From an uncultured Anaerolineaceae bacterium (GTDB lineage: Bacteria; Chloroflexota; Anaerolineae; Anaerolineales; E44-bin32): a stretch of 64,000 nucleotides of DNA. The notes under the pieces were generated by a model that was given only the letters and a program-made list of their open reading frames with translations, made no database searches and was not told the origin of the DNA. Below are positions 9,809 to 34,042 of this stretch, in pieces. The first letter of the stretch is position 1. Each line of letters starts with the position of its first letter. The stretch spans positions 1,002 to 65,001 of the forward strand of contig CAYYVY010000009.1 of NCBI GenBank assembly GCA_964475265.1. The letters are read 5' to 3'. The position numbers and the translations under genes are program-made.

Positions 9809-10570
9809 ATGAGAAAGGAATCTGGAATGGACACGACGCTCCTGCGACCGCGATGGGTGCGCATCTTTCAGCATGCCTGGCTATTAAATCTCGTCTTGTT
9901 CTTGATCCTGGCGGCTATTCGCTGCTGGGGTTTGTTTGGACCGGCTGGTGTGAGAATGCTGGTCATGCTGAGTTTTTTGTTGATGTGGTTCTTGCCTTTC
10001 ATCTTCTACTCAAATTCCGGACGCAATGCTGCCGGATTGAAGCGCATACAACACACTCGCTGGTTGTTCGGAGGGATGTTCATAGCCGCTCTGGCGTCGT
10101 TGATGATCTTTCTCATCGGCTATGGGTTGTACGGCTTAGGAGAGGACAATTGGTATATCAGTCTGCGAGATTCGTTTGCAATCGATGCCACCTTGAAGCA
10201 GCTGCCGCGCTTGCAGCTGTTTCTGATCTACACACTTCCCGCCGTGCTCTTTAGTCCGGTCGGTGAGGAATTCTTTTTCCGTGGCATGATCCATGCTTCG
10301 GTTGAGAAGAAATTAGGACCACGAGCAGCGACGGCGGTGAATGCGGCGGCCTTCAGTGGTGTGCATCTCTTGCATCACGGAATCAGCTGGACTTCCACAG
10401 GAATACAATTTGCTTGGATCTCGGGCTCGCTGTGGTTTATGATGATGTTGGGATTGAGTTGGTTTCTTACACACTGCCGAGAGAAGAGTGGTTCGATATG
10501 GCCTGCCGTCGCAGCGCATGCCGCGTTCAACCTCGTCACGAACGTGACGATTTTCTGGGTGTTGCTCTAG
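9809..10570 (+). CDS. CPBP (CAAX/Abi-family) intramembrane metalloprotease
   Basis: EEFFFRG, FSGVH and HAAFN motifs with multiple TM helices. Confidence 0.9.
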   Translation: MRKESGMDTTLLRPRWVRIFQHAWLLNLVLFLILAAIRCWGLFGPAGVRMLVMLSFLLMWFLPFIFYSNSGRNAAGLKRIQHTRWLFGGMFIAALASLMIFLIGYGLYGLGEDNWYISLRDSFAIDATLKQLPRLQLFLIYTLPAVLFSPVGEEFFFRGMIHASVEKKLGPRAATAVNAAAFSGVHLLHHGISWTSTGIQFAWISGSLWFMMMLGLSWFLTHCREKSGSIWPAVAAHAAFNLVTNVTIFWVLL

Positions 10571-10633
10571 ATGGCGATCATCTCACGGGAACTATTTTTT
10601 AAGTAACGGACGTTCGTAGATAGAGAGGAGAGA

Positions 10634-11152
10634 ATGGAAATGTCTCGAGCAGCAGCGGCACGATTTGTTCTCGTATTGATTGTATTATCCACAGGGTGCA
10701 GCCTGATATCTCCTGCTGCAACATCGGATACCGAAGTGTCCTTCACGATCGCCATCGATGCAGGTGTGTTTTCTGCTGAACGCCCGGTACGATTCGTATT
10801 CTGGAACGCAGCGCAATTGGAAATCGCGCAGCGGAATGCCAATTGTTCGATCTCCTACGATGCCGCGACAGAAAAGGAAGAAGTCCACTGTCCTGAAGGC
10901 GTTGTATACGAGCCGGTCACACCGCACGAGTTCGCTTTCACGCGGGATGAAATTGGCGATCGTGTCGAGCTTACCCCAGGCAATATCTACGTGGGTCAGC
11001 GCTATCGTCTTCAAATTTCCGGATTGAGTAACGATAATTGCAATTCAACCTCAGCCAGCGTCGAGGAGATCGCCCGGAGTGCAGAGGTTGTCATTGAGGA
11101 CCTCATGTGGATGACGACCATGATGGCTTGCCCGGAGCCGCTCGGGCAGTGA
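10634..11152 (+). CDS. Hypothetical lipoprotein
   Basis: Signal peptide with LSTGC lipobox; GAGGAG RBS. Confidence 0.7.
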   Translation: MEMSRAAAARFVLVLIVLSTGCSLISPAATSDTEVSFTIAIDAGVFSAERPVRFVFWNAAQLEIAQRNANCSISYDAATEKEEVHCPEGVVYEPVTPHEFAFTRDEIGDRVELTPGNIYVGQRYRLQISGLSNDNCNSTSASVEEIARSAEVVIEDLMWMTTMMACPEPLGQ

Positions 11153-12477: not shown

Positions 12478-13236
12478 GTGGATATAATGAAAAACGACTC
12501 TGGGAAAGCGACGAAATCCGAACCCGAATCTCGCAAGCGGCTTTATCTCATGGGCGGTGCGGCTTGCCTCGTTATTGCGCTCCTGTATCTGAGCGCGGCG
12601 GCCGTTTACGTGCCCGCCATGCGGCAGGGACCGGCGCCGACCACCGTCCTGGAGTGGTTTGATTTGCTGCAAGCCGATCGTCTCGTTGGACTCTTCTACC
12701 TCGGTTTCGCCGATATACCCATCGTGATCCTTTTTGGTTTGGTGTCATTCGCACTGCACACCGCATTAAAGCAAGTGGACGAAATCTGGGCGATGATCGC
12801 CGCGCCGTTTGCCTTCGTGGGAATGGCGGTCTATCTGGCCACGAACGTGTCCTTTTCGATGCTTTCACTCAGCAGCGAGTATGCGGCTGCGACAACCGAG
12901 GCGCAGCGGTTGGCGACTCTGGCCGCAGGGCAGGCGTTGCTCAGTGTCACCCATGGAACGGGCGGAGTGGCCGGATTGGCCCTCGTTTGGCTGGCCAGCT
13001 TGATTTTCTCGATTCTCATGCTCCGCGCGCAAAGGATGAGTAAATCAACTGCCTGGATCGGGATCATCGCCTTTGCGCTGCTCGTACCCAGTTTCTTGTT
13101 CTCGGGCTACACCTATGGTGCCTCGTCCCGGATCGGAGAAGCCTTGGCCTTGGTCACCAGCATCGGTGGGGGACTGCTTTCACTGGTGTGGTACATCCTC
13201 ACGGGCTTGGGTTTGATACGGTTAGGCCGCGCGTAA
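12478..13236 (+). CDS. DUF4386-like membrane protein
   Basis: About 6 TM helices; LSSEYAAATTEAQRLATLAAG motif shared with three paralogs here. Confidence 0.7.
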   Translation: MDIMKNDSGKATKSEPESRKRLYLMGGAACLVIALLYLSAAAVYVPAMRQGPAPTTVLEWFDLLQADRLVGLFYLGFADIPIVILFGLVSFALHTALKQVDEIWAMIAAPFAFVGMAVYLATNVSFSMLSLSSEYAAATTEAQRLATLAAGQALLSVTHGTGGVAGLALVWLASLIFSILMLRAQRMSKSTAWIGIIAFALLVPSFLFSGYTYGASSRIGEALALVTSIGGGLLSLVWYILTGLGLIRLGRA

Positions 13237-19370: not shown

Positions 19371-20084
19371 CTAAACCGCTAGAGAGGCATCGCGCCCGAG
19401 TTGGAAAAACCTCCGCCCGAGTTGAACGTACCAGATCACATATCCCGGAAGACACAGGAATAATAAGTATGTCCCGACGACCGGCACGAAGAAGAGGCAC
19501 ACGGCCAGATTGGTGAGGATGCCGACGTAGGCCGTCGCTTTGCTGAAGAGCTTGCTGCGCAGCATCAGCAGCGAGCTGATAAGCAGTGATAGGCCTCCCA
19601 GGAATGTGTTGGCCAGATAGGCCGTGCCATTGAATTGCGCGAGCGTAGCTTCCCCAGCGGCCAAAAATCGGTTTTTCACCAGATCGCTCGTCGCTGCAGC
19701 ATAACCGTCACTCAGGGTGAATAATTCTGCTATGGGTCTCGCCGGCACGATTAATATAGCCGCCAACAATCCCAACACCAAGGCGATCAATGCATACGAT
19801 TCGTTGACCTGCTTCAAGGAAACGTACAGGGTAAGAAACAGCAAGAGCCCGATGAAGTTACTGAGAAACAACAGGAAATCCAGCGACATCAATCCCCCGA
19901 AGCGGTCGCTTTGAAGCGTTGCGTAGATTTCAAGCGTGGAGGCCGATCCCGGTGTGTACGGCCAGATGGCGAAGGCAATGCCTCCCAGGACGATCAGCAA
20001 TTCCAAGATGATGGCCGTAAATCCACCGATTTTATAGATGTCCTTCCAGCGAGGATCTGCGGAATAGGTGTTTTTTGTATTCAT
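19371..20084 (-). CDS. DUF4386-like membrane protein
   Basis: LSDGYAAATSD...FLAAGE; ATG 20084 downstream of AAGGAG. Confidence 0.7.
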   Translation of the reverse strand: MNTKNTYSADPRWKDIYKIGGFTAIILELLIVLGGIAFAIWPYTPGSASTLEIYATLQSDRFGGLMSLDFLLFLSNFIGLLLFLTLYVSLKQVNESYALIALVLGLLAAILIVPARPIAELFTLSDGYAAATSDLVKNRFLAAGEATLAQFNGTAYLANTFLGGLSLLISSLLMLRSKLFSKATAYVGILTNLAVCLFFVPVVGTYLLFLCLPGYVIWYVQLGRRFFQLGRDASLAV

Positions 20085-20152
20085 GGGTATCCATAATCTC
20101 CTTTTAATTTCCATTGATGGTGGATGAATGTATATCTCGTCGGATTGGCTAT

Positions 20153-20851
20153 TTAGATCGGAGCGCTTCTCCCCAGTTGGAACAACCTGCGTGCGATCAT
20201 TATGTTCCACACGAAAAGCAGCATGGCCGAGAAGGCTGAAACATACAGGCCCACGACCGGGAGAAACAAGCCGAAATCGAGGATGCTCGAAACAATACGC
20301 ACGCAAGCCGTGGTCCGATTGAAGATCGTGCTGCGCAGCATGACGATCGAGAGGATCAAGCCCGTAATCGAACCCAACAGGTAACTGACCATATAGCTGG
20401 TGCCGTGGAATATCGCCAGAAGACCCTCTCCCGCCGCCAGGTACAGGGTCTGCTGCGCATCGGTTGTGGCCGTCGCGTATTGGCCGCTGAGATGCAGCAT
20501 TTCTAAAGCCGGTCTAGCCGAGAAAAGCGCCGCGGATCCCGCGATAGTGAGAGCGATGTACAGCGCCATTAACGCGGGATCGGTCCGCCGCAGGGCGACG
20601 TACAAGGCCAGCGACAGGGGTATCGCCAGCACTCCATAGACGATGAACAACACTTCGAAGGACAGTAATCCTAATAATGCGTTGTCTTGAAACAGCTCGA
20701 ACCAGCCCAGCGCCGTGCTCGGAGGCGGCTCGATGCTGAAGACGGCGATCTGTATGGGGACGATGAAGATCATTAATACAACCGCAATTGCGGCGATCCT
20801 GTAAAGTGATTGCCATTGAAAGTTACCGCTTTCTTGATTTGATTTCATCAT
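20153..20851 (-). CDS. DUF4386-like membrane protein
   Basis: WFELFQDN, LSGQYATATTDAQQTLYLAAGE. Confidence 0.7.
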   Translation of the reverse strand: MMKSNQESGNFQWQSLYRIAAIAVVLMIFIVPIQIAVFSIEPPPSTALGWFELFQDNALLGLLSFEVLFIVYGVLAIPLSLALYVALRRTDPALMALYIALTIAGSAALFSARPALEMLHLSGQYATATTDAQQTLYLAAGEGLLAIFHGTSYMVSYLLGSITGLILSIVMLRSTIFNRTTACVRIVSSILDFGLFLPVVGLYVSAFSAMLLFVWNIMIARRLFQLGRSAPI

Positions 20852-21258: not shown

Positions 21259-23994
21259 TCAGAGCAGACCCAGTTGACGCGCCCGTGCGACCGCCTGTGT
21301 GCGGCTGTTTACCCTCAGCTTTCCATAGATGTTGCTGCTGTGCTTTTTTACCGTATGCAGTGTAATCACGAGGCGATCGGCGATTTCGTGATTGGACAAA
21401 CCTTCGCCGATCAATGCCAGGACTTCCTTTTCGCGCTCACTCAGCGTGTCGATCAAGGCGGACTCTGCGGACTTGGGTATGGCTGCATCTTCAGCGACCA
21501 GCTTCTCCGGGAAAGCGGCTACGATGCTCTCGACGTACTCCGGGCTGGCGTTTCCGATTTCGCCCCGCGCCAACAGGGTCGTCAATGTATCGAGCAGTGG
21601 GGTCCCTTCATCGATGAAGATGCTGATAAATCCTTCCGGCTCGGCTAATTCCAACGCCTGGATCGTGTCCGCAGCGCTTTCTTCCGTATCACCGATAACG
21701 GCATGCATTTGGCCGCGAAGTAGAAGCAACTCCAACCCGATGAGAAGATACTGACGCTGCAAAGCTTCTTCGACGATGAGGTCCGCCAAGGCAATGCCGG
21801 CCTTTAAGTTTGCCATCTCTTGCTTGGTCCGCGCTCGGTACAGCAGGATTCGAAAAGCGCTGGTATAGAGCGCCCCGGTGGGCGGGGTGATGATCTGGTA
21901 GGGGGCTTGCTCTGGGTGGTCGAATCCATCCTGGAAAGAAAAGCCCAGCGGTGTGAGGATCGCTTCCGCTCTGGCAAGGCGGTTGCGGGCCAGGTGGATG
22001 CGGATTTCCTGGGCTAATGCTTCCTCACGCACTGCCGTTGGTGCCTCAGATCGCATCATGCCTGCGACCTTCTGGATCTCTCGATCGGCTGCTTCCAAAT
22101 CGCCCTCAAGTTGATGTAGTCGGGAGAGGACCACGCCGTAATACACTTCCGCATCGCTGTAGCCGCTCAACTCGCTCACGCGGATAGAGCGCTGAAAATA
22201 TTCGAGCGCCTTTTCCAATTGGTGCCATTGGTAATGAACCACACCAAGTTCACCGTATACAGCGGTGCTGATCGGGGGCAAAGATCCCGAACGCTCCATG
22301 CGTTCGAGTCCACGAGAGACGATCTCGAAGGTGAAATGCAGCTGGCCGTGCTGGATGGCCATCAGTGCCAGACCGGAAATGCCCAGCAGTTCGTAAACCG
22401 AATTGCCCACCGCCTCGCCGTAATGGATGATCCGTTGGAATGCTTCCAGAGCGTTGTCGTATTCGTCGAGTTGTTGGTAGACGCTTGCCAGTCCCAAATC
22501 GATCATGCTGCGTACGCGTCCGTCATCCTGGGAGACGAGCGCAAAAGCTTGTTGCGCCAATTTCAAGCCCTCTGCCGGCTTTCCCTGTGCGTTGAGCAGC
22601 ATAACCTGCAGCGCGAGCCACTTTGCCTTGAGAATGGGATTATCATCCCCGATTTTGCCTTCGGCGTGCATTTCCTGCAATCGATGCAGATACGGAGCCG
22701 CCTGCGAATACGCACCGCGTTGAATGTACATCCAGGCGAAGGCCAGGTTGGCTTCAGCACTTTGCTCGCACCAGGCGTGGGGGATCGCTTGCAGCCAACC
22801 GTCCACCGTTTTGATGTGCCATTTCATGAGCATATCCATGGCGTGACTTTCGATCAGGCGCACGGCCGCAGCATAATCTCGAGCAGCCAGGGCATGCTCG
22901 ATGGCTTCGCTGGGCATGTCCATTTGGACGAACCATTGGCTGGCGCGTTGGTGAAGCTCGGCTACGGAATCCTGAGCGAAGTCCTGTAAACGATCGCGCA
23001 GCAGATCGGTAAACAAGGCATGATAGCGATACCAGCGCTGCTGGTCGTCCAACGGGATCAGGAACAAATTGGCGCTGTATAAGTCTTCCAGCAACGAGCG
23101 ACTGTCACTGCGTCCCGTAATTGCATCGCACAAATCCCCGTTCAAGCGATCAAGAATCGAAGTTTGCACCAAAAAACGCAGGATATCTGGCGCTTGCCGG
23201 CTGAGGACTTCCTCGCTCAAGTAACTCAGGATGAAGCGGTGGCTGCCGCTCAGGTTGGTGATGAATTGGGAGGGGTTCTCTCTGTCGTGGATCGACAAAC
23301 CGGCGAGGTGCAGCCCGGCGATCCAGCCTTCCGTGCGATCGACCAGCTTGCGGATGTCGCCTATCGAGAGGGAAAGCCCCATTTGCTGATTGAGGAATTT
23401 TTCAGCTTCCTTCTCAGTAAAACGCAGATCGCCCGCTCGAATCTCGCTCAGTTTATCACTGGCGCGCAAGCGAGCCAGCGGCAGTGAGGGATCTTCCCGG
23501 GTGATCAAAACGAGATGCAGCGGCAATGGAAGATTCGAAATCAAGTCTTCCAAAACATGCAGGATGTATTCATCTTGGATCACCTGGAAATCGTCCAACA
23601 CCAGCAGGAACCGTTTCTCGACGCTGAGGATGTCACCGATAAGGGTCGTGCTGAAGACCTCGACGGGGGGGAGTTGTCCTGCGCGCAGCACCCCTTCGAT
23701 CTCGCTGCCGATACCGCCCTCGATTTGCTGTAAAGCAGCGATCAGATAGGAAAAAAAGCGCCCGGGGTCGTCATCCGCCGCATCGAGGGAGAGCCAGGTC
23801 ATCGGCCAGCGAACCAGCGAATCGATCCATTCGCTGACGCAGATGGTCTTACCGAATCCGGCCGGTGCCGAGACAAGTACGATTTGATGTCCGCATTCCA
23901 ACCCTTCGGTCAGTTTCCGAATCAGGGATGTACGTTGGACCCACTTCCCGGGAAGGGATGGGCGATTCAGTTTCGTGGTTAAGAGACCCGACAT
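21259..23994 (-). CDS. MalT-family STAND ATPase / LuxR HTH regulator
   Basis: APAGFGKT, LVLDDFQ, TEGWIAGL, TPR-like sensor region, C-terminal LSEREKEVL...NSRTQAV. Confidence 0.93.
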   Translation of the reverse strand: MSGLLTTKLNRPSLPGKWVQRTSLIRKLTEGLECGHQIVLVSAPAGFGKTICVSEWIDSLVRWPMTWLSLDAADDDPGRFFSYLIAALQQIEGGIGSEIEGVLRAGQLPPVEVFSTTLIGDILSVEKRFLLVLDDFQVIQDEYILHVLEDLISNLPLPLHLVLITREDPSLPLARLRASDKLSEIRAGDLRFTEKEAEKFLNQQMGLSLSIGDIRKLVDRTEGWIAGLHLAGLSIHDRENPSQFITNLSGSHRFILSYLSEEVLSRQAPDILRFLVQTSILDRLNGDLCDAITGRSDSRSLLEDLYSANLFLIPLDDQQRWYRYHALFTDLLRDRLQDFAQDSVAELHQRASQWFVQMDMPSEAIEHALAARDYAAAVRLIESHAMDMLMKWHIKTVDGWLQAIPHAWCEQSAEANLAFAWMYIQRGAYSQAAPYLHRLQEMHAEGKIGDDNPILKAKWLALQVMLLNAQGKPAEGLKLAQQAFALVSQDDGRVRSMIDLGLASVYQQLDEYDNALEAFQRIIHYGEAVGNSVYELLGISGLALMAIQHGQLHFTFEIVSRGLERMERSGSLPPISTAVYGELGVVHYQWHQLEKALEYFQRSIRVSELSGYSDAEVYYGVVLSRLHQLEGDLEAADREIQKVAGMMRSEAPTAVREEALAQEIRIHLARNRLARAEAILTPLGFSFQDGFDHPEQAPYQIITPPTGALYTSAFRILLYRARTKQEMANLKAGIALADLIVEEALQRQYLLIGLELLLLRGQMHAVIGDTEESAADTIQALELAEPEGFISIFIDEGTPLLDTLTTLLARGEIGNASPEYVESIVAAFPEKLVAEDAAIPKSAESALIDTLSEREKEVLALIGEGLSNHEIADRLVITLHTVKKHSSNIYGKLRVNSRTQAVARARQLGLL

Positions 23995-24061
23995 ATCTCA
24001 CGCATCATTGTCTTTGCCTTAGTTTAACAAAAGGCGATTAAAAGACTCTATCTCATCGAAT

Positions 24062-24787
24062 TCATGCTTGTGTACTCTCCCGGGCAAGCCGGAAGAGGCC
24101 TCGACTGATCAGCACCCACCAAATCAGCCAGCTCAATCCGCCGACGGGTATGAGTATCTCCGACAGCGTTGCGTTAATGACCAGGCTGAGACGACCTACG
24201 AGGGTGATGAAGAATCCAAGTATGCCTACATACGCCGTCGCCTTGTCGAACGTCCCGTTGTGTAAAATTACGATTGAGATGATCAGGCTGGCGATTGCAA
24301 TGAAGAAGTAGCCTATCGTGTCGATCGTCGCCCGTACGGGAGCGCCTAACGTTTGTCCCACGGCTAATAATTGATCTCTTTGGACTTGAGTCGTCGCTGC
24401 TGCGTATTCATCGCTGAGTTTTAGCATCGTGGATCCCATATCGGCACGCGAGGCGACGAATACGGTGATGCCCAGGAGGGCGAAGAACACGGCAATCAAC
24501 ATGATCGATTCGTTCGCTCGTCTCAACGCTATATAGAGCGCCAGAAACATGACCCCCAGCAAGGCGATGGAAATCACGTCGAAGACGTTGAGCGCCAGCA
24601 AACCGAGTAGCTTGTTGTCCTCGAACAAGGAGAACCATTCGAGCGCTTGGGTCGGGTATTCGTCACCGACCAGAATTACGCCGATGACCTCGATTACGTA
24701 TGTGGCCAACGTAATCAGCGGGGCAATCACACCGATCCGATACAGCAGATTCCATGGATTGGTTGTTGTTTGGTTATATTTAGGCAT
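24062..24787 (-). CDS. DUF4386-like membrane protein
   Basis: EWFSLFEDN, LSDEYAAATTQVQRDQLLAVG. Confidence 0.7.
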   Translation of the reverse strand: MPKYNQTTTNPWNLLYRIGVIAPLITLATYVIEVIGVILVGDEYPTQALEWFSLFEDNKLLGLLALNVFDVISIALLGVMFLALYIALRRANESIMLIAVFFALLGITVFVASRADMGSTMLKLSDEYAAATTQVQRDQLLAVGQTLGAPVRATIDTIGYFFIAIASLIISIVILHNGTFDKATAYVGILGFFITLVGRLSLVINATLSEILIPVGGLSWLIWWVLISRGLFRLARESTQA

Positions 24788-25079
24788 GTTGTGTTTCTCC
24801 GTCTTGGAGTGCTGTTATTTCATTGCTCGTTTACTTTTGTATATATAAGTATGGGGGAGAAGTATGTTCTTATCAAGATTAACCCGGGCGGATAGTGAAG
24901 TGGGTAGAATGATTGAGTCTATAAAAATTTGGGGAGAATTCAAAATCCGCTCGATGAAAATTCGGTATAAAGAACAACAGCGGCCCAAACGACTAATTTA
25001 TGTATTTCGAGTTGTCGGGGGTACTCAGCACAAGCGAATCAAAATAACCTGAAGCTGGAGAGCTTTAAGCGGCAGTTAA

Positions 25080-26195
25080 CTAACGAGTCATCTCATCAAT
25101 CTCGCGGGTTCGCAGGCCGATGAGCACACATACCGCGATGCCGACGAGGACCGCGATCATACCTGCTGGCGCGATCGTGACTTCCATGGGTCCTGTGGCG
25201 CAGGGTGCTACGAGTCCAAAGTTGTGCGCGATGGCTCCCCCAAAAAACATACCCAGGATGAAGTAGGCTGCATCCCCACTGCCTTCCCCTGTGAGGATGA
25301 GCTGCCGTGTCGGGCAGCCACCTGCCAGCGTGGAGGCGATCCCGACCAGGATCATACCCAGGAAATTCCACAGATGTTGGCTTTGAACGACGGGTTGATT
25401 GGCAAAGCCAATATTAATTTGTCCCAAGAATGTATTCGTCACGAATGCAGCGATTAATAGACTGAGAGCCCCGCTAAGCAGGTGGGTGTTTCGTATGAGC
25501 ACAACATCACGAATCGATCCCATGATACAGAAGCGCGTGCGTTGGCCCAAAAATCCGATCGACAATCCTGCAAGCAAAGAAAGCCACACAGCGGCGTGCA
25601 TCGATCCTGAACCCACATAGCTGGAAAAGATGGGACCATCTTCCCCGACGCGTGGTTGAAAGATCAGCAAGAGCAATAGGCCGATCGTTCCGATCGGAAC
25701 GAACCAGCTGAAAAATGCCGGCAGTATCCTGGTGCGGCCAGGTGTGTAACCGGCTTTAAGTAACCGCACGCCGATGCCAACGCCCACTCCAAATCCTGCG
25801 ATGCCTACAAGTGCGTTCAGATCGCCGCCGGCAAGCCGGAGTAATGCTCTCAATGGACAGCCCTGGAAGGCTAAGGCGCCGATGGCTGTGAAAGAACCCA
25901 GAATCAAAGGTACGAGTGAAAGTGTTGTTGCCCGGTTGCGATGCTCCGAAAACAGCTTGGCGGTCAGATAGGCACCCAACACGATGCCTATGATCTCGGG
26001 ACGGATGAACTGCACGGCACCTTCACGGTGAAAGCCCAACGCGCCACTGATGTCGCGTAAGAAGCCTGCGATGCAAATGCCCATGTTGGGTGGATTACCG
26101 GCGTAGACCAAAGCAGCGGCCATAACCCCGATAAAAACTCCGGCGAAGACGACTCCCCGCTGGGCGGCAAAGAAGGCTGTTAGCTTATCTCGCAT
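25080..26195 (-). CDS. yedE: YedE/YeeE-family putative selenium/sulfur transporter (selenium-metabolism YedE type)
   Basis: GNPPNMGICIAGFLRD, FIRPEI, GCPLRALLRLAGGD, QRTRFCIMG, GGCPTRQLIL; ATG 26195 after GAGG. Confidence 0.88.
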   Translation of the reverse strand: MRDKLTAFFAAQRGVVFAGVFIGVMAAALVYAGNPPNMGICIAGFLRDISGALGFHREGAVQFIRPEIIGIVLGAYLTAKLFSEHRNRATTLSLVPLILGSFTAIGALAFQGCPLRALLRLAGGDLNALVGIAGFGVGVGIGVRLLKAGYTPGRTRILPAFFSWFVPIGTIGLLLLLIFQPRVGEDGPIFSSYVGSGSMHAAVWLSLLAGLSIGFLGQRTRFCIMGSIRDVVLIRNTHLLSGALSLLIAAFVTNTFLGQINIGFANQPVVQSQHLWNFLGMILVGIASTLAGGCPTRQLILTGEGSGDAAYFILGMFFGGAIAHNFGLVAPCATGPMEVTIAPAGMIAVLVGIAVCVLIGLRTREIDEMTR

Positions 26196-26218
26196 CGTCA
26201 ATTCCTCTGGAAGTCGGT

Positions 26219-26443
26219 TTAAATGTCGAATAATCCCTGGGTTTCGATCCGCAGGGATTGGACCAAGGATTCGGCTCGATCTCGGTCGCTTTGGGCAATA
26301 CGGACGCAAACCCCACAATCCGAGCTCAGGTGACGAGGCACGGGAATTAGTTTCGAGGCGACCCCGGTTTTTTGCAGGATTTTTTCTAACTTCAGGGCAT
26401 GACTTGTCGAATAGACCAGAATCACTGTGTACGCTGCGCTCAC
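26219..26443 (-). CDS. DUF3343 putative Se/S carrier protein
   Basis: STSHALKLEK...LIPVPRHLSSDCG. Confidence 0.85.
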   Translation of the reverse strand: MSAAYTVILVYSTSHALKLEKILQKTGVASKLIPVPRHLSSDCGVCVRIAQSDRDRAESLVQSLRIETQGLFDI

Positions 26444-27657
26444 TGCCTATCCTTTGCCATGATGCGTTCTATATTGAAATGAAGCCTTCCGTTTTTCTGA
26501 CTTAAATGTTGGACGGCAGCAACAGCAGCGCTTACATCTTCGTGGGTATTCATTGCGCCCAGACCGAAACGGACGGTGCCTGTCGGGAATGTGCCCAACG
26601 TCTTGTGCGCCACCGGCGCACAGTGCAGCCCCACACGGCAAAGGATGCCGAATTCTTCATCCAGACGAAGGCCAACGTCGGAGGGGGGCAGATCGGCAAT
26701 ATTGAATGAGATCGTCGACGTTTGGAATGCTGCTTGTGCCCCGCCATACAGCGTGACACCTGGAATATCAAGCAGACCATCCAACAGCGTCTGAGTTAAG
26801 CTCATCTCGTGCGCACGAATGTTTCCCACGCCTTGCTGCAGCACCCATTGGATTCCGGCTTGCAATCCTGCAATGCCAACGCCGTTGGGCGTTCCGCTTT
26901 CACCCAAATCGGGTAAGAAGCCGGGATGTTCTTCCAGTTCTGAGCGGCTGCCGGTGCCACCCCGCTTGAGCGGTACAAAGCGATCGAGATCGACGCGCTC
27001 ACCGACAACCAGGCCGCCGGTTCCCATGGGACCGAAAAGTGATTTATGTCCCGTAAACGCCAACAAGTCGATCATGTCGGCTTGCATGTCGATGGGATGG
27101 GCACCTGCGGTTTGAGCGGCATCAACCAACAGGAGCAGCTCACGTTGGCGGGCGATTTTGCCAAGATCTGTAATGGGCAGAATCGTGCCGGCGACGTTTG
27201 AGGCGTGATTGATGGCCAGCATGACGGTATTGGGGCGAATCGCTGCGGCAACATCGGCTGGTTGCAGAAAGCCTTCTGGAGAGCACTTCACAACGGTTAA
27301 CTCGAGTCCGATTTGTTCCAGAGCCCGAAGTGGACGCATCATCGAATTGTGTTCCATGCTTGTGGTGATCACATGGTCGCCCGGTCGTAGATAGCCACAT
27401 AGCGCCAAATTCAGGGCCTCCGTTACGTTGGCGCCGAAAACCACTTTCAGAGGATCGTCGACATTAAATAACTGTGCGACGCGTTCACGCGTTTCGAAGA
27501 CCACGCGCGCGGCCTGCACGGCCATACGGTGACCGGATCTTCCCGGATTGGCGCCTAGCTCCGTCATGAAATGAACCATGGCCTGGCTCACCGCGATCGG
27601 CTTGGGCCAGGACGTCGCTGCATTGTCCAGGTAAATCAGGTGCTCTTTAATTTGCAT
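26440..27657 (-). CDS. PLP-dependent cysteine desulfurase / selenocysteine lyase family protein
   Basis: YLDNAATSWPKP, NPGRSGH, DAAQTAG, FTGHKS (PLP Lys), RVGLHCAP (catalytic Cys). Confidence 0.92.
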   Translation of the reverse strand: MQIKEHLIYLDNAATSWPKPIAVSQAMVHFMTELGANPGRSGHRMAVQAARVVFETRERVAQLFNVDDPLKVVFGANVTEALNLALCGYLRPGDHVITTSMEHNSMMRPLRALEQIGLELTVVKCSPEGFLQPADVAAAIRPNTVMLAINHASNVAGTILPITDLGKIARQRELLLLVDAAQTAGAHPIDMQADMIDLLAFTGHKSLFGPMGTGGLVVGERVDLDRFVPLKRGGTGSRSELEEHPGFLPDLGESGTPNGVGIAGLQAGIQWVLQQGVGNIRAHEMSLTQTLLDGLLDIPGVTLYGGAQAAFQTSTISFNIADLPPSDVGLRLDEEFGILCRVGLHCAPVAHKTLGTFPTGTVRFGLGAMNTHEDVSAAVAAVQHLSQKNGRLHFNIERIMAKDRQ

Positions 27658-27667
27658 GCTTTTCCGC

Positions 27668-28600
27668 CTACTCGATCTCAACTTTACGCTGCAGTAAGAA
27701 AACTTCGGATTCCATTAAATCTGTAATCGTTAGATACGATGCGTCGTGCGAGAGATATAACGATACGAACATGGGAGATTCGATAACGTCTTCACGAACC
27801 CAATTCAAGCCGCCATCTTTGGTGTGAAAGGCAACGACTTTACTTTGTGAATTTCCTGTAACATGCAGCACCGCCAGGCCATGTTGGTCGTCCAGAAAGC
27901 GCAGCCCCGCTGAGGCGGTTTCCATGTTGGAAACCTGTACAGCTCCGATGGGTAAAATCCGTTGTTGCCAGCTTTCCCCCCCGTTTTGTGTGACGAACAA
28001 CTGCCCCTCGGTATCGAGAACGGCGCCGTTCATTGGGGTCCTCAGCGATATCGCCAGTATCTCGGATAAATCCTGCGGCAAGCTCAGCAATTGCCAACTG
28101 CTGCCGCCGTTGGTGGTTATGCCTAAGCGGTCCGTCGTGGCGACCCAGCCTGTGGTGGCATCGAGAAAACTTAGAAATTTGCAATAGTTGCCAAACTCAC
28201 TGACGGCTTCCCAAGACTGGCCACCGTCGATACTTCGGCCAATGGGTCCCAAACTGCATTGCCAGGCCACTTGTGGGTCGACCACGTCGAGTCCGAAGAG
28301 GCACTCGATGCTGCTGTCTGACGGGGTCCAGGATTGACTACCGTCAAGCGTTACGTGTGCTTTTCCTTCGTCCGCTGGACCACCTGTGATCCCGAAATCG
28401 GAATTTAGATAGGCGGCGACGCGTATCGCATGATCTATCGAGGCTTTGCGAAGAAACACCCAGGAGTCGGACAGCGGCATATATTGCATGTCACTTGCTT
28501 GGTCCGCTTGGGGAGGGACAATCTCTTTGGGCGTACAGGCGACTATTGCGAGCAATAGTAAAAATATAAGTGGAAAGCTGGGTGAATTGAGTCTCGTCAT
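27668..28600 (-). CDS. YCF48/BNR-repeat beta-propeller lipoprotein (Cys form)
   Basis: IVAC lipobox; repeated T/S-x-D/N-GG-x-S/T-W Asp-box motifs; ECLFGLD...WQC. Confidence 0.85.
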   Translation of the reverse strand: MTRLNSPSFPLIFLLLLAIVACTPKEIVPPQADQASDMQYMPLSDSWVFLRKASIDHAIRVAAYLNSDFGITGGPADEGKAHVTLDGSQSWTPSDSSIECLFGLDVVDPQVAWQCSLGPIGRSIDGGQSWEAVSEFGNYCKFLSFLDATTGWVATTDRLGITTNGGSSWQLLSLPQDLSEILAISLRTPMNGAVLDTEGQLFVTQNGGESWQQRILPIGAVQVSNMETASAGLRFLDDQHGLAVLHVTGNSQSKVVAFHTKDGGLNWVREDVIESPMFVSLYLSHDASYLTITDLMESEVFLLQRKVEIE

Positions 28601-28633
28601 CTTGGTTTCAACCGCATTGCCTTTCTCCGACGA

Positions 28634-29581
28634 TCAAGTGTCGTTATGTCGAAGGACGGTGATCTTTCCTGCGACCGACTGGATCGTTAGATATTTCCCG
28701 TCTCTTGACAGATACGTGGAGCCAAGAGTGGCTGGCACGATTTCTTCCTGCCAGGTTTGACCGCCATCCGTAGTCGTCAGCGCGACGACCTTGCTGTCTC
28801 CTCCTCCAAAGAGGTCGACGATCACGATGCCGTCATCGGCATCCAGGAAACGAACGGCACCGAAGGTAACGGAATTATTCGCCTCTAGTTTCATCTCACC
28901 GTATTTGCCCAGCGGCAGTGAAATCTTGTTCCAGCTCCGGCCTCCGTCGGCCGTGATGTACAAGTCTCCGCCCTTGTATAGGAGATATCCATCCATCCTT
29001 GTCCGGAGTGAGATTGTGACGATGTTGTAGACAAAGATGTCCTCAGGCAGTGGGAATTCCGTCCATGTTTCACCTGCGTCGGTACTTAGCTGTGAGTCTG
29101 GTGTTTGGTTTGGAGAGAGATACCAGACTGTATCCGCATCGACCGCACTCACTCGACAGAATGGTATTCCGGCGCCGTCAGCATCGCCTTCCCAGGTAAG
29201 GCCGCCGTCCCGCGTCAGGCGAATCACCGAAGCGTTGCATTGCCAGATCGTGTTGACATCAACGATGTCCAGACCGAACAGTCAACCCGAACTTGTATCG
29301 GAAGCCACCCAGGTCTGACCACCGTCGTGGGTACTGTGAAAAACACCTGCCGCATCGGCACCTCCGGTAAAACCCAGTTCGTCGTCATAGAAAGCGGCTA
29401 TCCTTACGTTTTGTTCCACGCGATCCAACTCCAGCACGACCTCCCATGGCTCGACAGGCTCTGGGGTGAGCGTTTCCGTCGGAACAACCACTGGAACTTC
29501 GCTGATCGGCGATACGCCGTTCATCGTGCATGCCGCCAGCAATGCGGTGAATAGTAAATGTAGCGCGAATATTTTCTTCAT
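28634..29581 (-). CDS. Putative selenoprotein: YCF48/BNR-repeat lipoprotein with in-frame UGA (Sec100), 315 aa
   Basis: AGGGAG RBS, ATG 29581, LLAAC lipobox; frame continues through TGA 29284-29282 as SSG-U-LFGLDIVDVNTIWQC, aligning with SIE-C-LFGLDVVDPQVAWQC of the adjacent paralog. Confidence 0.8.
29246..29275 (-). promoter_or_regulatory. Candidate bacterial SECIS element
   Basis: mRNA after the UGA reads CUGUUC-GGUC-UG-GACAUC-GUU-GAUGUC-AA-CA-C-GAUC; G-initiated apical loop starts after an 18-nt spacer from the UGA. Confidence 0.6.
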
Positions 29582-29605
29582 CGATTGTTCTCCCTTCATT
29601 GGTAA

Positions 29606-29863
29606 TCACATTGACGAAGTTGCATCCATGCGTCTCACCAGGATTAAATTCAAACCCAGGTCACGAATCCGGGACAAAATTCCGTGCAGCGCGGCTTGAT
29701 CAGGGATGTCGCCATAGAAAGTGGTGATGATCTTCCCATCATGTTCTTCGATGTTGATCTGCATACCCTCAAACCAAGAAGACCAGTTGTGATCCAATCG
29801 TCCCTGGACTTTAATTTCATACACCGCCAAGGAATCCGTATATTTTTTCGTGGAGTTTTGCAT
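29606..29863 (-). CDS. Small ACT-like hypothetical protein following a MalT-type regulator
   Basis: YEIKVQGRLDHNWSSWFEG...PDQAALHGILSRIRDLGLNLI. Confidence 0.75.
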   Translation of the reverse strand: MQNSTKKYTDSLAVYEIKVQGRLDHNWSSWFEGMQINIEEHDGKIITTFYGDIPDQAALHGILSRIRDLGLNLILVRRMDATSSM

Positions 29864-29909
29864 CCTCAACCCTCATAGGAGCACAAAAACCGCTGGCCTG
29901 GATGGACTT

Positions 29910-29958
29910 ACTCTATCAAGCAAGCGGTGTCATTGTCGTCACCCAAGAGGGTGATTGC
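29910..29958 (-). promoter_or_regulatory. Candidate operator TCAC-N8-GTGA with -10 element for the selenium operon
   Basis: TCACCCAAGAGGGTGA at 29939-29954; TAGAGT on the minus strand at 29915-29910, 23 nt downstream. Confidence 0.5.
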
Positions 29959-29976
29959 GGGTACCAATTTAGACGG

Positions 29977-32727
29977 TTATTCGAGAATCCCCAATTCGCG
30001 CGCACGTGCAACGGCCTGTGTGCGCCGCGAAACGTCAAGCTTGCGAAAGATGTGCGAGATGTGTGTTTTCACGGTGTTCACAGAAATATAGAGTCGTTCG
30101 GAGATTTCCGGATTTGAAATCCCTGTGGCAATTAATTGTAGAATCTCCAATTCGCGCGGTCTCAAAGGCTCGATCAGCTGATCCTGCTTTCTGGTTTGTG
30201 ACCGGGGTGACTCTATTTCCTGTTTCCAAAGGTTGGATATCGTACACAAGCGCGCAATATACTCGGGGTAACTACTGCTTGGCTTTACTCGCTGCAGCAA
30301 TCGAAGCAACGGTTCGCCTTCACCGATGAAAACGTGGGTGAATTCTTGGGGCATGGCTATGGCGAGAGCCTGCTCCAGGTTTTCAGCTGCGCGTTGATTT
30401 TGACCATGGGCCTCGTACGCAAGCGCTTGCAGGATCATGATTTCGATTTGCGAAGGAAGATCGTTGCGGTGCTCAGCGATTGCGCCTTGACTCATCAAGA
30501 TGGCTTGCAACTGTTTCAGGCTGGCCACGGGTTGTGAATAATTTCGTTGGTGCTGGGCGAGAATCACTCTCGCCAGCGCGAGGACTTCGGTGTTGATATC
30601 GTTGGAATCCACATCCAGGATCTCTCCTCGAGCTTTTGCCCACTGAAACGCGTTATCGAGATAGTCTGGTTCTGTCTGCGCCTGCCGAAGCCATAATCGT
30701 ACCCGTTGTGTGCTGATGTTTAGCGTTTCGTTCGGATGCAATTGCTCGGCTTTGTGCAATGATTCCAGAGCCGCTGTGATCTGCCCCCAAATTTGCTGGA
30801 TGGCCGCGAGTTCGAGCAATCCCTGACATTGATGGACAGGTGCGGAGGTCAATTCAAGCAAGCTCAATCCGTGCTGAATTGAATCAATAGCCTCATGAAG
30901 ATATCCCTGCTCGAGTAAAGTGCCGCCAAAGACGATTTCGATCGTGCCGGCGTAAGGGATTAACCGATCCCCCACTTTGTCTCTGATCGTTTGTAATCCC
31001 CTGTTACATGTCTCAACCGCGTCGTGCAAATCTCCCCGCGCACGGGCGATATCCGCAAGCGCAGTAATGCCGGCTGAGGCGTTAAACAGGTCGTTGCTGG
31101 CGATACCGGTATGCCAGGCTTCTTTGAATGATTCACGAGCAGCATCGATGTCCCCGTTGCGCTGGTAGCCTTTCCCCAAGTTGAAGGCCAGCGCGCTGCG
31201 GAACAGGGTTTCATCTTCTGGAAGACGCTCGATCGCTTGAACTGTGAAGTCGATCGCTTTTTGGATGTCCTCTCCGCGTAGTTGGAGCAAGTAAGCCCGA
31301 ACTTTGTCGATGTAGTGCTTGGCAACAGGGGTCACCGGGGGGCTCATTTTCTGCGCTGTGCTGTCTGCCTCCAATGCCGTTTCCGCGAACTGCAGCCACT
31401 TCTCGACCAGGGCCGCAGATTCGGGGGTGTCGAGTGTATTCAGATGATCCAACAAGATGCAGCTGGCGAAGACAGCACTAAGTAATGAGTGGGAACGCAA
31501 TACTTCTTCAGGTAGCGATTTCAGCCACTTGTACACCAGTACGGTTTCGCTGCGGTAGAAGATGCTTAATACATGTCGTTTGATGATCTCTGCGGCGTAG
31601 TCAGGTTGCTGCGCGGTCAATGCATATTTTATCGCTTCATCGATTAATCCCTCTTGCTCGAACCACTGGCTGGCTCGAATGCGGATTGAATTGATCCGCT
31701 CCTGATCATGCAACAAACAAAGCCGATGATAGAGCAAATCGGCGAACAAGTGATGATAACGGAACCAGAATCGACGATTGTCCAGGGGAATGATGAAGAG
31801 ATTGATCCGCTCCAATCCGTCCAATATGTCTTGGCTGTCGTCGCGATTTGTGAGTACATCGCAAAGCGGCGCGCAAATTCTTTCTAAAGCCGAGGTTTGA
31901 TAAAGAAAATCCTGAATATCAGCTGGTTGGTCTTGAAGGATTTCTTCAACCAAATAGTCCATCACATAACGGTCGTCGCCTGCAAAGGCGTCGATAAATT
32001 CCTGTTTCTCTTTACTGTCCAATGCTTGCAGCGAGAGTGCAGCCAGGTGTAAGCCAACGGCCCACCCTTCCGTCCGTTTCTCCAATGCAGCGACATCATC
32101 GACCGGTAGATCCAGGTTGGAAATCGTGTTGAGGAACTCGTGGACTTCTTCAACTGTAAACCTGAGATCAGCAACGCGGATTTCGGTCAACTCGGCGCGA
32201 GCTCGCCAACGTGCAACTGTGAGTGGAGGATTTTCGCGCGTTGCGATCACGATGTGGATATCTGGAGGCAGGTGATCGATAAAGTAATCCAAACCCTGGT
32301 GGATGGTTTCCTCTTGTAAGAGGTGGTAATCATCGAGCACCAGTATGAAGGGGGAAGAGATGGAGGAGAGATCGTTGATTAAGACGGTCAGCAGGGATTC
32401 CAGGGGTGGAGGTTGCGATAACTGCAGCGAAGCTTTCACCCCTTCTCCGAGCGATGGATGCAGTGTTTGTATGGCTGCGATCAAATACTGCCAGAACCTG
32501 CCGGCATCGTTGTCTTGTGTATCTAAAGAAAGCCAGGCGGCAGAACCGTCTCGCTGCTGCAGCCAAGCACTCACCAAGGTTGTCTTTCCGAAACCAGCGG
32601 GTGCGCAGATCAGCGTAATTCGTCCTGCCAGGCCGGCGTCCAACTGCTCGATCAGCCGTTCGCGCGGCACGAGGTCCAGTCGCGTTTGAGGGATATATAG
32701 CTTTGTCGTCAGCAACGAGGTCGACAT
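29977..32727 (-). CDS. MalT-family STAND ATPase / LuxR HTH regulator
   Basis: CAPAGFGKT, LVLDDYH, TEGWAVGL, FRYHHLF, C-terminal HTH LRPRELEIL...RRTQAV. Confidence 0.93.
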   Translation of the reverse strand: MSTSLLTTKLYIPQTRLDLVPRERLIEQLDAGLAGRITLICAPAGFGKTTLVSAWLQQRDGSAAWLSLDTQDNDAGRFWQYLIAAIQTLHPSLGEGVKASLQLSQPPPLESLLTVLINDLSSISSPFILVLDDYHLLQEETIHQGLDYFIDHLPPDIHIVIATRENPPLTVARWRARAELTEIRVADLRFTVEEVHEFLNTISNLDLPVDDVAALEKRTEGWAVGLHLAALSLQALDSKEKQEFIDAFAGDDRYVMDYLVEEILQDQPADIQDFLYQTSALERICAPLCDVLTNRDDSQDILDGLERINLFIIPLDNRRFWFRYHHLFADLLYHRLCLLHDQERINSIRIRASQWFEQEGLIDEAIKYALTAQQPDYAAEIIKRHVLSIFYRSETVLVYKWLKSLPEEVLRSHSLLSAVFASCILLDHLNTLDTPESAALVEKWLQFAETALEADSTAQKMSPPVTPVAKHYIDKVRAYLLQLRGEDIQKAIDFTVQAIERLPEDETLFRSALAFNLGKGYQRNGDIDAARESFKEAWHTGIASNDLFNASAGITALADIARARGDLHDAVETCNRGLQTIRDKVGDRLIPYAGTIEIVFGGTLLEQGYLHEAIDSIQHGLSLLELTSAPVHQCQGLLELAAIQQIWGQITAALESLHKAEQLHPNETLNISTQRVRLWLRQAQTEPDYLDNAFQWAKARGEILDVDSNDINTEVLALARVILAQHQRNYSQPVASLKQLQAILMSQGAIAEHRNDLPSQIEIMILQALAYEAHGQNQRAAENLEQALAIAMPQEFTHVFIGEGEPLLRLLQRVKPSSSYPEYIARLCTISNLWKQEIESPRSQTRKQDQLIEPLRPRELEILQLIATGISNPEISERLYISVNTVKTHISHIFRKLDVSRRTQAVARARELGILE

Positions 32728-32905
32728 AATTGGCTACCGAAAGGATTCTTAAACCCGCATATGATCCGATACTAGCATGATTTTCATTGATATCCACCTC
32801 CCGGCGCGAATCGGATTCAAGAATCACGAATTTCCGTCGGAGTGTTCAAACCCGAATTGGTGCGATGTCATTGCTCCGCGATCCGGGAAGTGGAACAGTG
32901 CATCT

Positions 32906-33955
32906 TTATTGACTCTGCTCCCACTGAACGTACGCTTCATACATCTCAGGCAGAGTCATCCATTGTACTTGCCCGAGCTGCACGTATGGCTGAATGCGTT
33001 GGAGCCAGGCTTCGACCACTTCGGTCTCGACTGGCGACCCGATACTTTTTCCGACGTAGTAAATGTTAACCTTGCCAGGCTCTGAGAGCGCGATTGCCGC
33101 TTCGAGTTCGGCGATAAAGGCGTCGATGTCCGCCATTTGCGTAGGCATCTCGCCGCTTTCTGCCAATATCACCAGCTGGCCGTTGGGATCATGGGTGAGC
33201 CAGTCCAGTCCGCTGTTGGCGCGCCAGGGGTGGATGCGCTCGGCCAGCTCGGCGGGAATTACGTCGTGGCACTCCGATGGTGTCTTACAGTCGCGGTATT
33301 CGGGTGGGCGTTGCGCTTCGGGCATGGACATCACGCTGTACGACACGATGCCGGTGGTGAAAAGGTAGCCGGCATCGACCGAGGCAGTGACCCAATCGCA
33401 GTGGGATGTGTTTCCCGAGAGGTGGCGTACGATCACACCCAGGGATTCGAGCTGCTCTTTTTCAGCCCGCAGATCACCGGCGAATCGGGCGCAGTTGTAA
33501 TTCAACTGTCCACCGATATCCGCATGCACACCGACGCCGTGGCCGCGCTGCTGCATTTCCAGCAGTACGTTATCCCCCCATTGTATGATTCCGTCGGTGA
33601 GTTCCTTGCTTTCCCAGGTAAGCTTCGCCCCGTATGTTTCGAAGAGCGAAGCCCACTCGCGCACGATGCGCACGTGCTGTTCGAATTTTGCTTCATTTTT
33701 ATCGTCCCCCCAACCTTCGAGATGGATCATCAGCCCAAGGTTGAGGAGCGCTTGGCCGTCGATCACGCCGCCGCAATCTTCGGGGCAGTTCCTGGCATTC
33801 TCCGGTCCGTCGCAGATCGCATCACCGCACTTTTTATCCGGCGTTGGAGCTTGCGGTTCAACCTGCGTTTTCTCGAGTGTGCTGATTTGGCAGGCAGTGC
33901 AGAACAACGTCAGGAAGAAGAGACACAGAAAAATGGTTCGTCGCATACGGATCAC
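32906..33955 (-). CDS. Lipoprotein with Cys-rich motif and probable polysaccharide-deacetylase-like barrel
   Basis: CTAC lipobox; CGDAICDGPENARNCPEDC; IHLEG, KLTWE, GHGVGVH, VQWMTLPE. Confidence 0.6.
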   Translation of the reverse strand: MIRMRRTIFLCLFFLTLFCTACQISTLEKTQVEPQAPTPDKKCGDAICDGPENARNCPEDCGGVIDGQALLNLGLMIHLEGWGDDKNEAKFEQHVRIVREWASLFETYGAKLTWESKELTDGIIQWGDNVLLEMQQRGHGVGVHADIGGQLNYNCARFAGDLRAEKEQLESLGVIVRHLSGNTSHCDWVTASVDAGYLFTTGIVSYSVMSMPEAQRPPEYRDCKTPSECHDVIPAELAERIHPWRANSGLDWLTHDPNGQLVILAESGEMPTQMADIDAFIAELEAAIALSEPGKVNIYYVGKSIGSPVETEVVEAWLQRIQPYVQLGQVQWMTLPEMYEAYVQWEQSQ

Positions 33956-34042
33956 CTTGTTATCGGAAGTGCCTTCAGGCGGTAATTATATAGAAATCGA
34001 AGGATCATGCTTTCCGTGGTGGCTTGGAGTGCAGGGAAATGA

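Follow-up and report, generated by a model that had tools for sequence, protein, structure and literature searches.

Predicted exported selenocysteine/cysteine beta-propeller lipoproteins joined to a YedE-type selenium-utilisation trio in a probable MalT-regulated operon of an uncultured Anaerolineaceae bacterium

Genes for the putative transporter YedE, a selenocysteine (Sec) lyase and a DUF3343 protein occur together, along with YedF or SirA, in clusters for which roles in transport, selenium release and trafficking have been proposed (Lin et al. 2015, PMC5322559). In the text of that study the selenium role of the trio is itself just a proposal, and the text of PMC11097638 describes no clear phenotype for a YedE deletion in Methanococcus and treats selenium transport by the family as unproven. 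The same three families, with the same proposed roles, end a minus-strand block of seven co-directional genes (25080–32727) in a stretch of 64,000 nt on contig CAYYVY010000009.1, from genome G000 of an uncultured Anaerolineaceae bacterium; ‘the window’ below means this whole stretch. The block begins with a MalT-type regulator and ends with YedE, and judged by its layout is a real, regulated operon. Between the regulator and the trio lie a small ACT-like protein and two exported beta-propeller lipoproteins, one of them predicted to carry Sec where the other carries cysteine (Cys). These propellers constitute a new, uncatalogued family of predicted selenoproteins. The reading favoured here, with a probability of roughly 40 %, is that the operon is a MalT-regulated accessory unit of two modules, in which extracytoplasmic selenium capture would feed YedE.

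The open reading frames (ORFs) of the window and profile searches give the following layout, all on the minus strand except for the last line, which has no strand.

29977–32727: MalT-type STAND/LuxR regulator, with which the block opens (AAA_16, TPR_MalT, GerE)
29606–29869: small cytoplasmic ACT-like protein, ‘p87’, 85–87 amino acids (aa); the ATG at 29863 gives 85 aa
28634–29599: Sec-type BNR/Ycf48-like beta-propeller lipoprotein (type A), 321 aa, translated with TGA as U
29282–29284: in-frame UGA, residue 106, aligned with Cys of the paralog and homologs
29255–29269: core of a hairpin resembling a Sec insertion sequence (SECIS), 6-bp stem, loop GUU, starting 12 nt past the UGA
27668–28600: Cys-type propeller lipoprotein paralog (type B), 310 aa, from alignment to type A
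26440–27681: class-V pyridoxal phosphate (PLP) enzyme of the cysteine desulfurase/Sec lyase family (TIGR01977)
26219–26443: DUF3343, putative selenium/sulfur carrier (PF11823)
25080–26195 (ORF extends to 26318): YedE, selenium-type putative transporter (TIGR04112)
24734–32905: block present or absent within the genus, regulator through YedE (synteny with congeners)

Intergenic gaps in the block are 6, 33 and 23 nt and overlaps 4 and 14 nt, with DUF3343 overlapping the lyase stop by 4 nt. A preliminary description of this DNA had reported six tightly spaced minus-strand genes below a MalT-type regulator, with no SelD or YedF/SirA-type carrier beside them. All six genes were recovered in place, and no SelD or TusA/YedF-type gene is present in the locus; selD lies on contig C10 of the genome and TusA-like genes on C78 and C130. 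A promoter and terminator scan gave no more sites than shuffled sequence.

The UGA of the type A gene is very probably read as Sec, given the Sec machinery of the genome, the Cys at the aligned column, a shared hairpin and retention of the TGA in relatives. The gene, already described as UGA-containing, has a single in-frame TGA (residue 106), which aligns with a Cys of the type B paralog (34 % identity, E 1e-53). The preliminary description had named a genome lacking Sec machinery as counter-evidence; selA, selB, selD and tRNA-SeC are all present in G000, so that the machinery is complete. Homologs with E ≤ 0.001 make up 1,188 clusters; in the best 120 of these, Cys stands at the UGA column in 78 and some other residue in 12. 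The other 30 are proteins of ~200 aa that start 1–28 residues after the column, the product expected when gene callers restart after a UGA. Gene callers thus split the Sec propeller genes, truncating these 30 clusters at the UGA, and the family is therefore under-annotated in public data.

On DNA, TGA occupies the residue-106 codon in ~20 loci (L numbers below denote loci on contigs and G numbers genomes). These are the window, G657, L014, L111/L124, L113 and L125, and further L128, L131, L136, L147, L154, L182, L185, L187, L190, L196, L197, L199, L207 and L216. The TGA is retained in the congener G657, with 81 % protein identity on both sides of the codon, and a contig from another sample (run X2) spans 29243–29357 with zero differing letters; thus it is not an assembly slip.

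An identical, perfect 6-bp hairpin of 15 nt, starting 12 nt past the UGA, is present in 13 of the 13 Sec-form rows tested at the nucleotide level (11 distinct sequences), with GUG or GUU as its loop, and six pairs form at this position in just 1 of 11 Cys forms. Eight later Sec loci encode the same DIVDV peptide, a comparison made at the peptide level. The bacterial SECIS model, as set out in the text of PMC13188914, allows a loop of 3–9 nt that has G at one of its first two nucleotides, a stem of 4–16 bp, a distance of 16–37 nt from the UGA and a minimum free energy ≤ −7.5. The loop, stem length and 18-nt spacing of the hairpin all fall within this model; the minimum free energy is −9.1 in the window and ≤ −7.5 in 10 of the 13 rows. 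Rfam gave no SECIS family match within 24000–34000, and folding of the single sequence that follows the UGA did not surpass shuffles (z = −0.44).

Several further features of TGA-containing genes are apparent. The Sec-form type B genes of L124 (7623–8320), L111 and L185 carry several tandem copies of an ADEYIR peptide repeat straight after the SECIS hairpin, in place of the stretch that is conserved elsewhere; the DNA of the repeat can form hairpins of its own. The selD gene of G000 (C10:28684–29607) is a selenoprotein gene with one in-frame TGA, as is found in every above-cut-off selD match elsewhere (G651, G491, G693, G657, G525, G175, G226, G743 and G401). Genome G525 also holds a MalT/small protein/propeller cassette (L233, contig C17). 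A TGA in its propeller (9924–10847) was considered as a Sec codon and rejected; it falls on the Trp that is invariant in the final Asp-box and is a nonsense change or a sequencing error.

Both propellers are predicted exported lipoproteins, with lipoboxes LAAC (type A) and IVAC (type B) read by inspection; the lipobox Cys is invariant in A2. The type A protein matches the Pfam families BNR, PSII_BNR and Sortilin-Vps10, and a propeller AlphaFold2 model (predicted local distance difference test score, pLDDT, 80.4) has Ycf48 as its best fold match (E 2.5e-11, template modelling (TM) score ~0.5). Orthology to Ycf48 was considered and rejected on the equivalog score: PRK13684 gives 40.6 and 34.7 bits against a cut-off of 326, while the generic PSII_BNR and BNR models pass. 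The fold class is shared with Ycf48. Within NCBIfam the propellers matched solely Ycf48, F510_1955 and BamB, all below cut-off, and no curated selenoprotein model. Likewise, Table 1 of PMC13188914 (2026), covering 119 prokaryotic selenoprotein families, contains no propeller, BNR or Ycf48 entry. Across propeller relatives C121 and C148 are mostly gained or lost together, which suggests that they form a structural pair and that residue 106 is a single reactive Sec/Cys.

A propeller tree of 50 rows places the 11 Sec rows, without exception, together with 13 Cys rows in a single supported clade (96/98), here the core clade, and Sec requires at least four changes. The window Sec form is sister to Cys forms in the same first position (L105, L124). 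Its Cys paralog groups with L142_791, a Cys form followed by a desulfurase, and with L124_7323, a Sec form. In the window, type A thus carries Sec and type B Cys; in L124 the assignment is reversed. The propeller pair is therefore old, and its Sec-bearing member has been swapped between lineages. Two more propeller paralogs are encoded in G000, at 55514–56518 (+) of the window and at C19:38141–39037, neither beside selenium genes; of the two, one belongs to the core clade as a type C Cys form and the other is an out-clade form. In L208 and L218 it is a type C propeller that adjoins YedE.

The last three genes are the selenium-utilisation trio already known from other loci. YedE scores 396.7 bits with TIGR04112 (cut-off 200). 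The PLP enzyme scores 454.5 bits with TIGR01977 (cut-off 377), whose model name, am_tr_V_EF2568, refers to EF2568, the SclA of E. faecalis as identified in the text of bioRxiv 10.1101/2020.02.07.939272; its RVGLHCAP motif, which includes the catalytic Cys, fits the RxGxHCA consensus that the same text gives for Group II. By TIGR01977 the enzyme belongs to the SclA family and is a putative Sec lyase; the SclA exception model NF040779 gives 372.9 bits, below its cut-off of 525. DUF3343 scores 73 bits with PF11823 (cut-off 25) and has an SDCGVC motif in its translation.

These families also bear on an improbable alternative, in which the operon would process sulfur (thiosulfate or polysulfide) or serve metalloid detoxification, and not selenium nutrition. 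YedE is homologous to the TsuA/YeeE thiosulfate importers; however, the TsuA models score 30–40 bits here against 397 for TIGR04112. The best data sets holding the window sequence are labelled salt marsh metagenome, and salt marsh sediments are sulfidic. The text of PMC5322559 distinguishes no selenium-specific subfamily of DUF3343, which is compatible with a sulfur role. Against it, selD is present in all three searched genomes that hold core-clade propellers (G000, G657 and G401).

Recurrence of the neighbourhood was assessed by a DNA-pattern scan of metagenome contigs, which yielded 117 loci, 33 with family members and 84 non-family loci (629 kb) that serve as controls. A scan of genome contigs was dominated by matches to a generic BNR motif and recovered only two true relatives. 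The recurrent unit, seen in L014, L105, L111, L124, L125, L137, L154, L185, G657 and G525, combines the regulator and the small protein with either one or two propellers. A homolog of the regulator is located upstream, in the same orientation, in L014, L111, L124, L125, L137, L185, L222 and L233, and p87 directly precedes the propellers in L014, L105, L111, L124, L125, L137, L154, L185, L222 and L233. Sec/Cys propeller pairs recur in the window, L014, L124/L185 and L125. The conserved core is therefore MalT regulator, ACT-like protein and propeller pair, to which the trio is attached in some lineages, repeatedly.

The regulator of the window combines AAA_16, TPR_MalT (157.8 bits, cut-off 45) and GerE, that is, a STAND ATPase, a MalT tetratricopeptide repeat region and a LuxR/GerE helix-turn-helix. 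No Pfam or NCBIfam family was found for p87, a Pfam search to E 10 returning a chance-level FKBP26_IF match alone, and its 58 homolog clusters are all unnamed. Its AlphaFold2 model (pLDDT 77) has a beta-alpha-beta-beta-alpha-beta order, and the top Foldseek matches in the PDB are ACT domains, weakly so (E 1.6e-3, TM 0.5). With fair confidence, ‘ACT-like’ describes the predicted fold of p87, and nothing more.

Trio genes lie immediately after a propeller, on the same strand, in the window and G657 (lyase, DUF3343, YedE), in L142 (lyase, then contig end), in L208 (YedE, lyase, DUF3343) and in L218 (YedE, then contig end). These four DNA-verified contexts show three gene orders and are mutually divergent (50–63 % protein identity). 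Start/stop overlaps occur in the window, and tblastn matches overlap in L142. No trio gene occurs in any of the 84 control loci. In all four contexts the propeller adjoining the trio is a Cys form. Additionally, five propeller/YedE cluster pairs share an identical longest-contig size of at least 5 kb (16360, 21896, 7803, 7676 and 28124), which would add four to five inferred contexts, and all five YedEs are within the 12 best of 120 YedE matches. Both propellers of the 7803 pair are Cys forms, a putative trio linkage resting on the matching contig sizes. In the YedE tree, seven of eight propeller-linked rows fall in a 12-row long-branch clade (Shimodaira–Hasegawa-like approximate likelihood ratio test 100); the eighth, from L208, stands apart on a very long branch.

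Five congeneric genomes (93–96 % complete) were compared; in most genomes at most five best candidates were scored, so that copies may be missed in all genome counts given here. selA and selD are present in all five. YedE and the Sec cassette are both present in two (G000 and G657) and both absent from three. In G693, 268 bp stand where the window has 23998–32905, with conserved flanks, and G651 has 238 bp in place of about 24734–32902; the flanks of the site are 74–82 % identical in the two genomes. Regulator through YedE thus behaves as one unit, lost or gained together with two different borders. G651 keeps the DUF4386 gene beside YedE, which is therefore outside the unit. The regions at 24062–24787, 19377–20851 and 12637–13230 of the window are among four DUF4386 paralogs around a second MalT-type regulator (21259–23994). 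Directly upstream of the block, at 32906–33955 (−), is a gene for a predicted lipoprotein of 349 aa that is rich in Cys over an N-terminal stretch and matches no Pfam family; this gene is conserved in congeners without the block.

Such presence and absence is also what would be seen if a MalT cassette and a selenium trio had merely come to lie together on a variable island, moved by one indel and sharing no function, as a single indel always takes out neighbours together. The modules do occur singly, the trio in G402 and the cassette in L124, L185 and L233, and the region is rich in serial MalT cassettes and DUF4386 paralogs. However, simple adjacency would not be expected to recur in four divergent lineages and three gene orders, always abutting and on the same strand, with start/stop overlaps in the window and overlapping tblastn matches in L142, a distinct clade of linked YedEs and no trio gene in any control locus. 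It is accordingly regarded as quite unlikely, and in those lineages where they are joined the propellers and the trio probably work together.

What the joint function might be is less secure. Selenium capture is favoured because the trio abuts Cys forms in four of four contexts, because a putatively linked pair is Cys/Cys and because the linked YedEs form a specialised clade. According to this favoured reading, the first module would be the exported propeller lipoproteins, each with one reactive residue, Sec in one paralog and Cys in the other, and the second would be YedE as membrane channel, the SclA-family lyase and DUF3343 as a small Cys carrier. The STAND regulator would switch the operon on, perhaps with the ACT-like protein as ligand sensor. 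The lipoproteins on the outer face of the membrane may then bind or reduce a scarce selenium species through their selenol or thiol, for example as a selenium-bridged adduct between the two paralogs, and hand the selenium to the specialised YedE; within the cytoplasm it would travel by way of DUF3343 and the lyase towards SelD. A further proposal, considered rather unlikely, is that propeller pair and specialised YedE constitute a binding-protein-dependent, high-affinity selenium uptake system. In such a system a selenol at residue 106 would give selectivity for selenium over sulfur in sulfidic sediment through an Se–Se bond, and reducing power would come from thioredoxin-CcdA fusions where these are attached. 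Such fusions, in which exported double thioredoxin/glutaredoxin-like domains (CPVC, CQKC) are joined to a CcdA/DsbD-like membrane part, directly follow the second propeller in L124 (8324–10243, P0180), L185 (6090–7958) and L194 (1478–3319), and likely represent an extracytoplasmic reductant supply. A predicted complex of the Cys propeller (residues 40–310) with YedE scored 0.01 against a mark of 0.32, a result that speaks neither for nor against binding.

A number of observations weigh against the capture reading. L124 and L185 have 6–7 kb downstream without the trio, and ten clusters with at least 1 kb visible downstream show nothing recognisable there and no trio gene (a further 19 are too short downstream to judge). 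The neighbours of lone delta-type propellers (L148, L187, L197 and L199) are unrelated, with nothing consistent among them. The L014 genome (completeness not given) has a Sec cassette and selD and no YedE match. Within a sample of 401 genomes of the order, 15 have a propeller match and 22 have YedE, and only G000 and G657 have both; 20 of the 22 YedE genomes are thus without a propeller match and 13 of the 15 propeller genomes without YedE, these 13 holding out-clade propellers. Six genomes of one genus encode out-clade Cys propellers and no selD, which means that the family at large is not bound to selenium. The contig-size matches are indirect, and three short coincidences (<1.4 kb), which cannot be real, demonstrate the limit of that heuristic. 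The sequences show the genes, their very probable Sec coding, the operon as a unit and the repeated adjacency; every chemical step, and the direction of selenium flow, is inferred.

The notion that the whole family is selenium-independent was considered and dropped, as the propellers of the six selD-less genomes fall outside the core clade. In the phylum and class samples, 3 of 401 genomes each have a match, and G823 has a lone propeller with no trio gene within 9.7 kb. In L014, a Caldilineaceae contig, an ORF that is transposase-like from the look of its translation (4796–6085, −) abuts the Sec propeller; thus a downstream partner of the cassette, if any, may have been displaced.

The preliminary description had suggested testing whether this propeller family co-occurs with yedE, DUF3343 and the desulfurase, and had named a lack of such company elsewhere as further counter-evidence. 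Co-occurrence holds for L142, L208, L218 and the congener G657 when set against the controls, so that neither kind of counter-evidence is borne out; it does not extend to the family as a whole, given L124/L185, the L014 genome and the YedE genomes of the order. The overall interpretation of that description is therefore partly supported: propellers and trio are not linked throughout the family, propeller matches are missing from most of the order's YedE genomes, and the sequence of capture, import and mobilisation is a proposal from gene content.

Two other ways of joining the modules need to be weighed against capture. The trio could secure selenium for the Sec form, an alternative already raised in the preliminary description, with the propellers performing an unrelated extracytoplasmic thiol/selenol redox task and the Cys paralog as a partner or backup that needs no selenium. 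In agreement with such a supply role, the Sec gene heads the propeller–trio part of the operon, Sec/Cys pairs recur, and the three congeners without the cassette also lack YedE and yet keep selA and selD; in Methanococcus, YedE mRNA rises 5.3 log2-fold under selenium starvation according to the text of PMC11097638. However, supply for the Sec form does not account for a Cys form directly beside the trio in every verified context, nor for the putatively linked Cys/Cys pair of contig size 7803, and the trio is missing from the Sec-form cassettes of L124, L185 and the L014 genome. Furthermore, the texts of PMC5322559 and PMC13188914 mention no other selenoprotein gene that brings the trio along. 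Supply is thus considered unlikely, if somewhat less so than adjacency without shared function.

Alternatively, the trio could deliver selenium or sulfur outward and load the Cys-form propeller with a perselenide or persulfide, which would be a post-translational equivalent of encoded Sec. The consistent contact between trio and Cys form would suit this arrangement, as would the swapping of Sec and Cys between orthologous paralogs, which suggests that selenium at the residue-106 site matters however it is delivered. Such loading is nonetheless very unlikely: YedE as an exporter would be without known precedent, L124 and L185 have the Cys form without the trio, and the idea is purely inferential. 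Capture feeding YedE remains the favoured reading.

The locus matters in several respects. YedE is a standing candidate without a clear phenotype, and an exported Sec/Cys pair that repeatedly travels with a divergent YedE offers a concrete, assayable partner for the question of selenium capture. If the proposed uptake system is real, no dedicated selenium importer before it would have relied on capture proteins outside the cytoplasm. Most selenoprotein families catalogued in the covered text of PMC13188914 have a thioredoxin-like fold, whereas the present family is a beta-propeller lipoprotein. The family is also marked by an unusually clean, invariant SECIS hairpin and by the swapping of Sec and Cys between orthologous paralogs.

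Comparison with described systems places the operon as follows. Thiosulfate uptake by TsuA (YeeE) and TsuB (YeeD) likewise pairs a YedE-superfamily channel with a small Cys carrier, but TsuA models are far below cut-off here and the carrier is DUF3343, not a TusA-like protein; to our knowledge, TsuA has no extracytoplasmic partner. The photosystem II assembly factor Ycf48/HCF136 is the best structural match, and both are BNR beta-propeller lipoproteins of ~300 aa. The equivalog score and the TM value given above nevertheless separate the two, and the Sec/Cys site of the propellers has no counterpart in the article texts covered, a comparison by description. In the SAO, Tso, grdAB and Methanococcus isoenzyme systems, as far as covered by the text of PMC13188914, a Sec gene is likewise clustered with functionally related genes and a Cys homolog. 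The propellers fall outside the 119 families of that catalogue, their partners are selenium-supply genes rather than more selenoproteins, and the Sec-bearing paralog is swapped between lineages. The preliminary description had considered the combination new, and no published description was found in the article texts searched. Within that scope, the closest relatives are the YedE/Sec lyase/DUF3343 clusters with which this account began. Those clusters likewise occur in SelD-containing genomes, but the present locus is without YedF/SirA or SelD, and its trio is joined to a cassette of MalT regulator, ACT-like protein and exported propeller pair, with a YedE that belongs to a divergent subclade.

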